IMG/VR virus record: IMGVR_UViG_3300034161_000018
Coordinates: 160,001 to 224,000 of that record
Source: a virus
Taxonomy: Duplodnaviria; Caudoviricetes
Direction: 5' to 3' (one strand)
Length of the DNA stretch: 64,000 nt
Positions 47,585 through 51,231 of the stretch are shown here, piece by piece; positions within the stretch are counted from its first letter, which is position 1; the number at the start of each line of letters is the position of its first letter. Under the pieces are notes generated by a model, which saw only the letters and a program-made list of their open reading frames with translations, searched no databases and was not told where the DNA came from. Position numbers and translations under genes: made by a program.

Positions 47585-49252
47585 ATGTACATTTCTCTGG
47601 CTTCCGTAAACCCAAGTTCGACGGAATCCGCGATTAAGTGTCTGATCGCATTATACAAAACCCGAGAGTTTGCGTATGAAACAAGTTTTCTGCGCAAGCT
47701 GACTCTGTGGGGCGATGAGTCGCGTGAATTCGCGGAACGATTCAAAATGTTGAAAGTGTTCAATCAGGCGATTCGTCTGGTTGTCTCCGGTCGCGACGTT
47801 GCGAAACATGACGACGTGCGTATCGCAATCAACGGCGTTTTCGACGCACTGAAAGAACAGAAAACAATCATCGACCGCGAAACGGACGTAACCCGTGCGC
47901 AACTCGGCATGATTAACGATTTGCGTTTGGCAGCCAACGGTTCCGAAGCCGCTGAAAACCGCCTGATGAAAAACGTGAGTTCGCTGCGTGACCCGGACAT
48001 TAACGAAATGTTTTTGCACACCGAGGAAGCTGGCGAAGACATGAAAGACGTGTATTCCAAACTGAATGCACTGGTGAAGAAATACGGCAACGTCAACGGT
48101 TACGAAATGCCGGTCGAAGTTCTGCGCGAGTGGCAAGCGTACAACAAATCGAAAGGCACGAAGCTCAAGCAACATGAGCAGTATCTGGAATTGCGCAAGC
48201 AAGTGAACGCGTTCTACAAAAAGCAATTGTCGAACCTGATTCGTTCCAGCGGCCAACCGTACCTGCCCGTCGCCGACGTGAAAAAGGCATTGGGCCAAAC
48301 GCTCAATCCGATTCCGGAAACTTTCGTCGGCATGATCGACGACAACGGCGGTTACTACACCGTTGCAGGCAAAAAGCTGATTCAGGCGCCAAGCGGCATT
48401 GTGCAAATGAACCCGGCATACGATGCGAAACTCGACAACGCGTATGTTTGCACTTTCAAAGCGCCGTTCTCTGCGGACTTCTCCCGCGCCTACACCGTCG
48501 ATTATCGCCAGTCTTCGCGCAGTGCGAAATTCGATGTTGTCGCCGAAGCAATGCCGAATCTGACCAACCTCACGAAAAAGTGGTTGCCTGATCTGCAAAA
48601 AGTTGCGGCGACGAAAGATTCCGTTTGCGCCCTGCTTTGCGAATTGACGTACCAAACTTCCGGTCGAATCGGCAGCACCAAAGGCGCGACCGATGGCGAA
48701 ACCACGCACGGTATTTCTACTTTGCTGTTGCGCCACTGCAATATCAACGACCAACGCATCATCATGAATTACACGGGCAAGTCTGGCGGTAAGCAACGCC
48801 ATATCGTGAAATTCAATACGCAACGCGGCCAGCTTCTGCACGCTGCTTTGATTAAAGCAATGGCGAACAAGAAACCGGGCGATTACCTTTCGACGTTCAA
48901 AGGCAAACCATTGCCGGGCAGCGCAGTAAACGCGTATCTGAAAACGTTGGGCTTCCCTGATGGTTTCACGATTCACAAACTGCGTACCGCGAAAGGTTCG
49001 GAACTCGCGCAAAAACTTCTGGAAAAACCACCGTTCAAGAAAGGCGCCAAAGACACCGACGTAAACAAATGGGTTGAACAGCAACTGATGAAAGTCGGTG
49101 CGGAACTCGGCCATATGTCCGGTGACAAGGTGACGGCAAACACCGCAATCGCAAACTACATCGACCCGGCGATTCTCGCTGAGTTGTTTGCATCGTTGGG
49201 CTGCCGACCAAACTCGAAAATCCAGAAAGCAATCGACTCGGTAGTCAAGTAA
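47585..49252 (+). CDS. DNA topoisomerase IB with large N-terminal extension
   Basis: GRIGS, GISTL, YTGKSG, HKLRT, LGH...ANYIDP catalytic set. Confidence 0.85.
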   Translation: MYISLASVNPSSTESAIKCLIALYKTREFAYETSFLRKLTLWGDESREFAERFKMLKVFNQAIRLVVSGRDVAKHDDVRIAINGVFDALKEQKTIIDRETDVTRAQLGMINDLRLAANGSEAAENRLMKNVSSLRDPDINEMFLHTEEAGEDMKDVYSKLNALVKKYGNVNGYEMPVEVLREWQAYNKSKGTKLKQHEQYLELRKQVNAFYKKQLSNLIRSSGQPYLPVADVKKALGQTLNPIPETFVGMIDDNGGYYTVAGKKLIQAPSGIVQMNPAYDAKLDNAYVCTFKAPFSADFSRAYTVDYRQSSRSAKFDVVAEAMPNLTNLTKKWLPDLQKVAATKDSVCALLCELTYQTSGRIGSTKGATDGETTHGISTLLLRHCNINDQRIIMNYTGKSGGKQRHIVKFNTQRGQLLHAALIKAMANKKPGDYLSTFKGKPLPGSAVNAYLKTLGFPDGFTIHKLRTAKGSELAQKLLEKPPFKKGAKDTDVNKWVEQQLMKVGAELGHMSGDKVTANTAIANYIDPAILAELFASLGCRPNSKIQKAIDSVVK

Positions 49253-49497
49253 TGAAAGTGCTAATCAGCTTGTCGGTTTCCGATGCAGCGATTGCACACA
49301 CTATGAAAGTCGGGCCGAGTCTCATTTCCACAATTCCATCCGATCCGTTTCACGACGAAATGCAGAAAACGAAACCGAAGGGAGTGTCTAGCCCAACGGT
49401 TTCGGGCAAGCGTAAGAAACGGAAGAAAGTAAAACCGAAAACGGATGGCGCGGAAATGGATACGCAACCTGCATTCCATATGCAACCGAGGTTCTAA
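49252..49497 (+). CDS. small basic protein
   Basis: TAATG coupling; KRKKRKK. Confidence 0.65.
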   Translation: MKVLISLSVSDAAIAHTMKVGPSLISTIPSDPFHDEMQKTKPKGVSSPTVSGKRKKRKKVKPKTDGAEMDTQPAFHMQPRF

Positions 49498-49751
49498 TGG
49501 AAGTGATGCTGAGTTTGGCCGATGCCACGAATCGAAACAAAGAAACTGGCAGCGGCGAACACGGCGGGGCACGTATTGCTCGCTGGAACGATCTTGAGGG
49601 AAAGCCGACCAAACCAAAAGTTAAAAGTCGGCTGAAAGACAAGACAAAGAAAAACACCGATATGAACGGCGGCTCCTACGGGCCAATTGGTAAAATGCAC
49701 ATGCGCAAAGCCAATTGGCTCGGCCTGATGGAACGCGGTCGAGAACGCTAG
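49497..49751 (+). CDS. small basic protein
   Basis: TAATG coupling. Confidence 0.65.
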   Translation: MEVMLSLADATNRNKETGSGEHGGARIARWNDLEGKPTKPKVKSRLKDKTKKNTDMNGGSYGPIGKMHMRKANWLGLMERGRER

Positions 49752-49761
49752 AGGTTTTGAA

Positions 49762-50205
49762 ATGGCGACTACGAAAAAGAAACGCGTTGTAAACGCCAGC
49801 GGCAAGCGACCAGTTAAAAAGGTTGCAACTGCCAGCACTGGCGCAGTGATGAAAAAGAAACGCCGCACCAAACGCCCTGCCAGTATCGCGGGAACTTGGT
49901 TTGGCAAAATGGGCCGTGAGAAACAAAAGCAGTACACGGACAAACACCCAACTTCCATTTTCTCGCGTAAGTCTGCGGCAAAGAAAGCGCCGTTGGATAA
50001 AGAAATGGATGGCCTGCGCCGCTTGGAAGACAAGCTGCACAATCTGGCAAAACAGCACGACGAAGTTTCCCATCAAGTCCACAAAGACATGGCGGGCAAA
50101 CGGATGCAGAAAAAGAAACTCGGTGATCTGTACGAAAAGATGGCGGAAGTACGCTCTCACATTCGTGCGGCCAAACAGGACATTGCTCGCAAAAAGGCGG
50201 CGTAA
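49762..50205 (+). CDS. basic (K/R-rich) protein
   Basis: 147 aa, GAGG RBS. Confidence 0.75.
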   Translation: MATTKKKRVVNASGKRPVKKVATASTGAVMKKKRRTKRPASIAGTWFGKMGREKQKQYTDKHPTSIFSRKSAAKKAPLDKEMDGLRRLEDKLHNLAKQHDEVSHQVHKDMAGKRMQKKKLGDLYEKMAEVRSHIRAAKQDIARKKAA

Positions 50206-50208
50206 TCC

Positions 50209-50811
50209 ATGCTCGTACAAATCAGTTTGAATTCGCAAGTCAGCACAGCGACTGCAAACATTGCTGTTGCTGCGGCAAAACCGAAAACCATCAAAGAAGC
50301 GCGTGCGGAAGTCGCGGCAATCAAAGCCGAACTCGACATTTACAAAAAGAAGGCCAAAGCTGAATCCGGCCTGACTGTTGTACGTGCGCAAATCGAAGCG
50401 GTGACTTACGGCCACCATTCACCAAAGAAAAAGAAAGACGCGTTAGTTCCGCTGAAAGCGAAGCGTGACAAGTTGCGTGAGCAGATGAAAACTCTGCAAG
50501 CACAGCGCAAGATTCACAAAACCGCTGACGGTCACAAGCTTCTGAATTTGCTGACCAAAGCCAAGCACCATTTGGAAGTGTTGAAAACTCTCAAAGGCGG
50601 TTTGAAAAAACCCGCTCCGAGTAACGCTCCGGCTCCAGTGGTTCCGCATCCGCAAAAGCGTGGCCCAACTCCAGTTGTTGTGCATGTCGGTAAGGATGGT
50701 GCGCAATCGGTTCGCAGAATCAACGGTGCGAAACCAAACAGTGCGCCGCTGCGTGCGAAAGCCAAACCAAACTCCGCACCTCCACGCGCTCGGGTTAAAC
50801 CGAACCGCTAA
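50209..50811 (+). CDS. basic coiled-coil protein
   Basis: 200 aa, K/A-rich. Confidence 0.75.
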   Translation: MLVQISLNSQVSTATANIAVAAAKPKTIKEARAEVAAIKAELDIYKKKAKAESGLTVVRAQIEAVTYGHHSPKKKKDALVPLKAKRDKLREQMKTLQAQRKIHKTADGHKLLNLLTKAKHHLEVLKTLKGGLKKPAPSNAPAPVVPHPQKRGPTPVVVHVGKDGAQSVRRINGAKPNSAPLRAKAKPNSAPPRARVKPNR

Positions 50812-50823
50812 CAGGAAAACGCA

Positions 50824-51231
50824 ATGGCTACCAAAAAGAAAGTTGCGAAGAAACCAGAAGCGGCAAAGAAACATTGGTTCACTGACAAGAAAGGTAGCAA
50901 GGGCAAGGAAGCTTATTTGAAAAAGCATCCAAACTCGAAATACCATCCGTCGAACCAAGGCCCGCCGCGCCCTGACCACGTTATTCAAGAGCAGAAGAAA
51001 GCACGCAAAGCTGCGGGCAATCAGAAGGCGAAGAAGATGAAATCTGCCAACGAACGTGTTGAGAAATACCGTGAGTTGATTAAGAAAGGTGAACAGCATT
51101 TCATCAAACTCGGCCAGCGTCCAAAGGACTTGAATGCTGCGAAGGCGTGGGAAGAAAAGCGCAAAAAGATTCTGGATGGAATCAAGAAGTACAAACTGGC
51201 AATGCGCGGTGCGCAATCTGTCGGTCGATGA
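50824..51231 (+). CDS. basic (K-rich) protein
   Basis: 135 aa, AGGA RBS. Confidence 0.75.
   Translation: MATKKKVAKKPEAAKKHWFTDKKGSKGKEAYLKKHPNSKYHPSNQGPPRPDHVIQEQKKARKAAGNQKAKKMKSANERVEKYRELIKKGEQHFIKLGQRPKDLNAAKAWEEKRKKILDGIKKYKLAMRGAQSVGR

Follow-up and report, generated by a model that had tools for sequence, protein, structure and literature searches.

A short N-terminal peptide shared by a type IB topoisomerase and its basic neighbours as a putative head-loading signal in relatives of the phages PaBG and Lu11

What does a phage type IB topoisomerase share with the small basic proteins encoded directly behind it? The question is raised by six consecutive plus-strand genes at positions 47585-51231 of a 64,000-nucleotide window, the whole stretch of DNA analysed here, which covers bases 160001-224000 of a 274,896-bp IMG/VR virus record (IMGVR_UViG_3300034161_000018) ending in direct terminal repeats. 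Positions are those of the window unless given as genome positions. Four of the six products open with the same motif, [IL]-S-L-x, which a preliminary description of the sequence had proposed to be a capsid-targeting or maturation-cleavage tag. On balance, the tag most likely loads proteins into the head and marks them for processing, much as the T4 capsid targeting sequence (CTS) does; its cargo would be the topoisomerase and the tagged basic proteins. The T4 CTS was reportedly described by Mullaney and Black in 1996.

The nearest named relatives of the topoisomerase, terminase, portal and many other proteins of this uncultured phage are found in the Pseudomonas phages PaBG and Lu11, with topoisomerase identities of 49.8% and 43.9%, respectively. 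Protein comparison adds HRDY3 and phage NCTB as further relatives, and megablast gave no match for the region among GenBank phages. The comparisons below also draw on two close relatives used to examine start codons (L032 and L051), on other metagenomic relatives (L035-L041 and L045) and on a complete genome (G001).

The tag extends well beyond the locus in which it was noticed. A scan of the proteome, based on crude gene calls (320 proteins), found [IL]SL[ASNDG] within the first 13 residues of eight proteins, where 1.0 was expected (Poisson P about 1e-5). In an unbiased tally of 4-mers within the first ten residues of the called proteins, LSLA, KVML and MLSL rank at the top. The consensus is M-K-V-M-L-S-L-A, with a core of hydrophobic-[S/A]-hydrophobic-[A/S]. 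A six-frame scan recovered about 15 proteins with unrelated bodies that start with the tag and are scattered over the genome, so the four genes first noticed are real but represent only part of the set. The carriers lie at genome positions 82870-83343, 85587-87221 and 90950-92179 (all on the minus strand), at 132988 (a protein of 623 amino acids) and 134869, and as a group of five at 261895-265028; the remaining counted carriers are the four window genes and the head protease (ELSLS). No Sec, Tat or lipoprotein signal peptide can be recognized in the tags, which comprise eight residues followed by polar or charged sequence, with no h-region and no cysteine.

Such a pattern could in principle be an artefact of chance, of wrongly assigned starts, of recent duplication of 5' ends, or of a DNA or RNA element that happens to be translated. 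The crude gene calls leave some room for this, as do several starts without a Shine-Dalgarno sequence, including the start at 49252, which overlaps the topoisomerase stop codon (TAATG). However, the enrichment has a low probability of arising by chance, the bodies of the carriers are unrelated, and the starts of the window genes are supported by L032 and L051, which retain the same N-termini. Across codons 2-8 of nine tags, second positions are nearly invariant and third positions take three to four bases, and serine codons of both the TCN and the AGY type occur. The flanks of the tags are at background identity (0.25 for the 21 nucleotides upstream and 0.28 for codons 9-15). Taken together, the codon pattern and the background flanks therefore indicate selection on residues 2-8 as a peptide, rather than on any ribosome-binding, promoter or recombination element. 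An artefact is thus largely refuted and is left with very little probability.

The first of the six genes (47585..49252, plus strand) encodes a protein of 555 amino acids that was initially named a topoisomerase IB, an assignment upheld by profile, catalytic residues and predicted fold. The catalytic-core profile PF01028 matches with an E-value of 6e-15 (55.7 bits against a cut-off of 23.7), and Deinococcus radiodurans TopIB (2F4Q) was recovered with the topoisomerase by phmmer. The catalytic pentad R361, K399, R467, H510 and Y525 is present, with all five residues invariant across 39 homologues, and aligns with R137, K174 and R239 of 2F4Q and with the tyrosine of the SxxxNY(I/L)DP motif. An AF2 (AlphaFold2) model with a predicted local distance difference test score (pLDDT) of 90 matched human topoisomerase I, variola topoisomerase and the bacterial (Deinococcus) TopIB at a Foldseek probability of 1.0, the variola match having a template modelling (TM) score of 0.60. 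By these measures the product is taken to be a genuine type IB topoisomerase, and is predicted to relax DNA via a 3'-phosphotyrosyl intermediate.

Residues 1-7 of this enzyme, MYISLAS (nucleotides 47585-47605), form a tag-like overhang. In the AF2 model, residues 1-6 have pLDDT values below 50 and the first helix begins at residue 10, while homologue alignments show the tag joined to the body of the enzyme by a Pro/Ser/Gly linker that varies; the tag on the topoisomerase is thus predicted to be a free, disordered overhang. Among 54 near-full-length homologues, 37 fit the strict tag pattern, compared with a background of 2.5% of N-termini and 0.8% of random 14-mers, and most of the others read xSLSAV or TIAAS. 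This near-universality would also fit a different explanation, in which the N-terminus is an inherited family feature that resembles the tag by convergence, with the topoisomerase outside the tag system; vertical inheritance alone would then suffice. In addition, the topoisomerase version is shorter than the other tags and lacks their K-V prefix, and when a model derived from them is applied, MYISLAS scores only P about 0.007. Nonetheless, convergence is considered improbable in view of the overhang and the linker, of the position of the topoisomerase at the head of a tagged cassette both here and in Lu11, and of the way in which its N-terminus shifts with the local version of the tag, including the prefix (MEM- in L035 and L037) and the choice between serine and alanine.

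These local versions are readily seen when relatives are compared. In Lu11, the top N-terminal 4-mers of the unbiased count are IQLA, KIQL and LAVA, and the topoisomerase, which starts MNVHIAVA, is followed by about 15 genes that mostly start with MKIQLAVA or a close variant. This tagged run ends in small basic genes just ahead of a strand switch, like that of the window. In L035 and L037 the cassette tags read MEMQLALA and the topoisomerase MEMTIAAS, in G001 the tags read xx[IV]SLSA and the topoisomerase MFCSLSAV, and in PaBG-like contigs the topoisomerase starts MHISLSAV and its neighbour MKILISLSA. The N-terminus of the topoisomerase thus changes in step with the tag version of each phage, and the co-variation is real.

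The tag also behaves as a portable module, which orthologues gain and lose. The SprT-like gene (44728-46029) carries no tag in this phage, nor does its orthologue in Lu11; in PaBG, L038-L041 and L045, seven to eight extra tag residues precede the conserved body. Likewise, the gene directly before the topoisomerase (47121..47573, plus strand, 150 amino acids) has MKIKLRR as its likely start here, while its orthologues in L035-L037 start with MKMTLALA, MKMMLALA and MKVMLALA. Finally, the 623-residue protein at genome position 132988 and Lu11_161124 have a common body with different versions of the tag.

The five genes behind the topoisomerase had been called strongly basic, and the computed isoelectric points (pI) bear this out: the five products have pI values of 10.1-10.9 and contain 19-30% lysine plus arginine (K+R). 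Genome-wide, with similarly crude calls, only 20 of 325 proteins have a pI of at least 10; the five form the longest such run, and about 3e-4 runs of five genes would be expected. Three of the five are tagged. The gene at 49252..49497 (plus strand) encodes a protein of 81 amino acids (pI 10.1) with the tag MKVLISLS (nucleotides 49252-49275), and is the remnant of an in-frame internal deletion of ~400 nucleotides (about 135 codons), with DNA matches on both sides of the deletion. Its full-length counterparts of 214-218 amino acids are tagged in L051 (4640-5284, MKVLISLSAT) and L032 (7915-8571, MEVLLSLSSS), and of these the remnant retains nothing but the tag and a basic C-terminal tail of ~70 residues. 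The gene at 49497..49751 (plus strand) encodes an 84-residue protein (pI 10.3) with the canonical tag MEVMLSLA (nucleotides 49497-49520), and has homologues in Lu11 (Lu11_169145, E 5e-9) and PaBG (PaBG_183693, E 9e-5) with a common C-terminal NWL..ERGRER. The third, at 50209..50811 (plus strand), encodes a 200-residue protein (pI 10.9) that starts MLVQISLN (nucleotides 50209-50232), has a second motif, I-A-V-A-A, around residues 18-22, and ends in KPNSAP repeats. A narrow position-specific scoring matrix built from seven canonical tags scored it poorly because the matrix penalises isoleucine and asparagine. Its tag was judged instead by conservation in L051, where its sole homologue found, P0002, is 72% identical and shares its first 14 residues.

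The other two genes of the cassette lack the tag. They encode very basic proteins of 147 amino acids (49762..50205, plus strand; pI 10.7, 29% K+R, starting MATTKKKR) and 135 amino acids (50824..51231, plus strand; pI 10.4, 30% K+R, starting MATKKKVA), the latter with homologues of 99-131 amino acids within the tagged cassettes of L032, L035 and L037. Searches of Pfam and PHROGs gave no family for any of the five basic proteins, and phmmer gave no PaBG or Lu11 homologue of the 81-, 147-, 200- and 135-residue proteins. The content of the cassette varies among the window, L032 and L051. Small, strongly basic products of variable-cassette genes that carry the targeting peptide of the phage fit the description of T4 internal proteins, as three of the five do here.

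Several lines of evidence connect the tag to the head. Inside the head module, a number of carriers occupy the interval from the scaffold-like gene to the protease and the region past it. The protease belongs to the head maturation proteases (phrog_18299), and its model best matches T4 gp21 (PDB 5JBL, probability 1.0). Annotation by profile is sparse in this module: Pfam had no match for the capsid, protease, scaffold-like and other proteins, and PHROGs assigned a name to just three, namely the capsid protein, the protease and one structural protein. The protease itself has E-L-S-L-S at residues 4-8, with hydrophobic-[A/S]-x-[A/S/G] at 5-8, in the same register as the tags. Across 46 homologues, the N-terminal extension of the protease varies in length and ends in hydrophobic-[A/S]-x-[A/S/G] directly ahead of a conserved F-S-x-G. 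T4 gp21 is in the same situation, and its propeptide has been suggested to target it to the core (PMC9026906).

Further links come from the virion proteins of PaBG. Its gp202 is a 221-kDa virion protein (PMC7412058), the orthologue of which in this phage has 1992 amino acids (genome 116193-122171, minus strand). About 35 residues into this orthologue, FISLSAAG stands exactly where the variable N-terminus meets the conserved body, and the same tag-like arrangement is present in the PaBG, Lu11 and G002 orthologues. The gene directly after the PaBG topoisomerase encodes gp83, with a pI of 10.3, which is among 14 Coomassie-visible virion proteins (PMC7412058, Table 1). It starts with MLIKINLLEAVAA, which is tag-like and resembles the start of PaBG gp219 (MAAIKINLAEA); no homologue of gp83 was detectable in this phage. 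Several PaBG head proteins are proteolytically processed, and the Lys/Ala-rich gp191, with a pI of 11.3, is also found in virions (PMC7412058). A 426-residue Lys/Ala-rich protein of this phage (genome 129573-130853, minus strand; 30% K+R, pI 10.9, starting MAVTKKPS) is the likely counterpart of gp191 by sequence comparison (E 4e-6 with the bias filter off), and is a candidate major DNA-associated head protein.

The domains of the tag carriers include an ART-PolyVal ADP-ribosyltransferase (PF18760, E 2e-20), a GNAT acetyltransferase and an ATLF-like zincin. All three enzyme types are known among injected phage proteins.

Might the tag be a real shared signal that has nothing to do with the head? 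It could be an N-terminal degron, a cue for timing that a host or phage protease or chaperone recognizes, or a strand that docks onto a replication or membrane complex, in which case the topoisomerase and the basic proteins would act only inside the infected cell. Any site that docks a beta-strand could accommodate its alternation of hydrophobic and small residues, and the presence of untagged, basic gp191 in PaBG virions means that the tag is not required for packaging. Additionally, the topoisomerase adjoins genes of DNA metabolism, namely the SprT-like gene, an MmcB-like gene (46026-46499) and a thymidylate kinase gene (46496-47131). Such an intracellular role is nevertheless thought unlikely, given that carriers lie within the head module and the head protease itself bears the motif, that the tag-like gp83 is an abundant virion protein of PaBG, that the ART-PolyVal and zincin domains of the cargo are typical of injected proteins, and that the motif marks the boundary between variable and conserved sequence in a 220-kDa virion protein.

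Besides the neighbouring DNA-metabolism genes, other observations weigh against a head-loading and processing signal. The topoisomerase has been classed as a replication/recombination enzyme (Iyer et al., 2021; PMC7824862), and PaBG gp84, the topoisomerase, is outside the 14-protein gel-band list, which covers only abundant bands (PMC7412058). As the versions of the tag fall into few clades, their co-variation with the topoisomerase amounts to only about three independent changes. The tags of PaBG are loose, the N-terminal motif of the protease is weak in PaBG, G001 and G002, and the 84-residue family is without a sharp tag in Lu11 and PaBG, its tag being kept in L032 and L051. Two of the five basic genes, those for the 147- and 135-residue proteins, lack the tag altogether. 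With regard to cleavage, no glutamate stands at a constant distance from the tags, and they are therefore not covered by the gp21 rule, in which cleavage follows L/I-x-E. Nor can the cut site of the capsid protein be tied to the tag, because hydrophobic-A-x-A is lost in more distant relatives.

That last motif had been considered as a maturation site. Near capsid residue 79, hydrophobic-A-x-A would fit the mass loss of ~20% reported for the PaBG capsid protein, and it was dropped when a 20-sequence alignment gave no conservation. What is conserved there is TGE[IF]NA and RRE[VM]L, the latter six residues on and in equally good agreement with the mass loss. A remark that virions of phiRSL1 contain a DNA topoisomerase (PMC7247149, citing Yamada 2010) was also set aside as unusable: phiRSL1 encodes both a topoisomerase IB (ORF108) and a type II enzyme, and the remark cannot be assigned to type IB.

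The initial proposal of a capsid-targeting or maturation tag thus holds in part. The tag is shared, selected as a peptide, portable and spread over the genome and the clade, and it is probably a targeting or maturation signal, but the T4-type L/I-x-E cleavage motif is absent. The N-termini of the protease and of the gp202 family only suggest hydrophobic-[S/A]-x-[A/S] as a motif of this protease's own. Cleavage of the tag is judged somewhat less likely than its role in head loading.

By analogy with T4, the tag would steer proteins into the core of the assembling prohead, docking its cargo to a core component as a free N-terminal strand of alternating hydrophobic and small residues, and would probably then be cut off by the gp21-fold prohead protease. 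Across the clade, topoisomerase IB is a constant carrier of this signal, and the tagged basic proteins of 81, 84 and 200 amino acids would be counterparts of the T4 internal proteins. Inside the head the cargo would stay with the DNA and then be ejected into the cell together with it, such that topoisomerase IB may be on the incoming genome before transcription starts. That the basic proteins condense DNA, as proposed at the outset, is only a plausible guess.

The untagged 147- and 135-residue proteins may enter by way of another short motif, common to a protein of the head module. A stretch of ~28 residues (WF..K....K.Y..KHP.S.Y/F) is present in both, at residues 45-72 of the former (nucleotides 49894-49977, plus strand) and residues 16-45 of the latter (50869-50958, plus strand), and it matches no Pfam family. 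The same KHP motif is found, sometimes in two copies, in a protein of 446-545 amino acids that adjoins the head protease in all five genomes examined; in this phage it is the tag carrier at genome 85587-87221 (minus strand), with counterparts in PaBG, Lu11, G001 and G002. Two basic proteins inside the head module of G001 bear the motif as well. When a profile was built from the five protease-adjacent proteins only, the four small proteins were the top four other matches among 1514 proteins, each of them weak when taken alone (E 0.06-0.5). The KHP motif is suggestive of a second, different link of the untagged basic proteins to the head, and no more than suggestive. In the PaBG record KF147891, an open frame at 179714-180226 extends PaBG_00224 upstream to a start of MLLSLSLAS. 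Within the extension, which runs into the annotated end of PaBG_00223, lies the KQKQY..P.SS motif, so that the start deposited for gp224 may have been placed too far downstream.

Among known systems, T4 offers the closest comparison. Its internal proteins IPI, IPII and IPIII are small and basic and carry a capsid-targeting sequence that is removed by the prohead protease gp21, and Alt, a packaged ADP-ribosyltransferase, enters heads via a propeptide that gp21 likewise removes (PMC9026906). As in T4, a peptide of ~8-10 residues stands at the extreme N-terminus of otherwise unrelated proteins, which include small basic proteins and an ADP-ribosyltransferase in variable, cassette-like cargo sets, and the gp21-fold protease bears a look-alike motif at its own N-terminus. 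In contrast to T4, the sequence is unrelated (MKVMLSLA here, MKTYQEFIAE in T4) and has no L/I-x-E motif; the tag belongs to the Lu11/PaBG clade, with a 371-residue capsid protein, phage-specific tag versions and a topoisomerase IB among the carriers, and both targeting and cleavage are here predictions. The phiKZ-like giant phages 201phi2-1 and SPN3US have N-terminal propeptides that are cut at S/A/G-x-E by a gp21-like protease (PMC5694885; PMC7411985; PMC10052503). These are likewise jumbo phages with a gp21-related protease and many non-structural proteins loaded into the head, as would be the case here. However, their propeptides are long, mutually dissimilar and defined by the cut motif, whereas the tag is short and common to its carriers and follows no evident glutamate rule.

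The preliminary description had likened the locus to a poxvirus core. Vaccinia topoisomerase IB (H6R) is a known virion enzyme (PMC1540416), and the phage enzyme would similarly be a small type IB topoisomerase, of the same fold as the variola enzyme, that travels in the particle. The likeness is functional only, and the T4 internal proteins with their capsid-targeting sequence are closer (PMC9026906). Poxviruses do without an N-terminal tag of this kind, and the phage enzyme is extended by an all-helical N-terminal domain of ~220 residues. The architecture and assembly of the virions, into which the phage enzyme is presumed to be packaged, are entirely different. Cargo-loading peptides of encapsulins are also short, rich in small and hydrophobic residues, and dock cargo inside an HK97-fold shell, as the tag putatively would by binding to the capsid. 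Unlike the N-terminal and presumably cleaved tag, they are usually C-terminal and uncleaved, and they come from a bacterial nanocompartment.

A phage-specific topoisomerase I in Lu11, PaBG, NCTB, Motura and phiRSL1 has been listed with replication and recombination genes (Iyer et al., 2021; PMC7824862). The present enzyme belongs to the same family, with 44-50% identity to those of Lu11 and PaBG; neither a tag nor packaging is mentioned in that study. A literature search found no relevant paper on this tag, on a CTS in this clade, on HRDY3 or on the virion proteome of Lu11. The tag is regarded as a new variant of the T4 CTS principle. New elements are the topoisomerase as a constant carrier that tracks the local version, the basic cassette resembling T4 internal proteins, the 81-residue remnant that has kept its tag, and the motif at the start of conservation in the gp202 family and the protease, together with the result that the capsid cut site cannot be tied to the tag.

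If head loading is correct, an eight-residue peptide would make it possible to predict, from sequence alone, the proteins that accompany the DNA of an entire clade of jumbo phages into the cell. The delivered set would hold anti-host enzymes and, unexpectedly, a type IB topoisomerase, giving a handle on the first minutes of infection by a giant genome. Alongside T4, the loading of foreign proteins into phage heads would gain another natural system, and the phage-specific versions would show how a targeting signal and its receptor co-evolve. Lu11 and PaBG can be grown on laboratory Pseudomonas strains, so the proposed role of the tag is open to ordinary tests.

A SprT/Spartan-like metalloprotease gene always lies a few genes upstream of the topoisomerase, and is itself tagged in several lineages. 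Proteases of the SprT type clear covalent protein-DNA adducts, such as trapped topoisomerase I, so the SprT-like protein and the topoisomerase may act as a pair. A more tentative proposal, which we hold to be possible but rather doubtful, is that capsid-borne topoisomerase IB, basic proteins resembling T4 internal proteins and, in some lineages, a tagged SprT-like protease form a pre-assembled DNA-handling kit. Such a kit would act on the incoming 275-kb genome before phage gene expression, where it might swivel the DNA during ejection, recombine the terminal repeats, or hold or release DNA ends. If so, these phages would possess their own equivalent of the enzymes in the poxvirus core, with a new and fast-diverging eight-residue tag as the address.

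Two metagenomic homologues of the topoisomerase, P0083 (687 amino acids) and P0086 (683 amino acids), have an unusual layout. They had been viewed as topoisomerases with an insertion after the tag, an interpretation that was dropped when BLASTP gave a tandem arrangement: a tag, ~125 basic residues, a second tag (MKLNVSIAAS) and the topoisomerase. They represent either a fusion of two tagged genes or the readthrough of a stop codon. Were the tag a cut site, the fusion would be separated again.

Finally, the plus-strand gene block that holds the topoisomerase and its basic neighbours is closed by a strong, terminator-like hairpin followed by a T run (51249..51280, plus strand), which lies between convergent plus- and minus-strand blocks.

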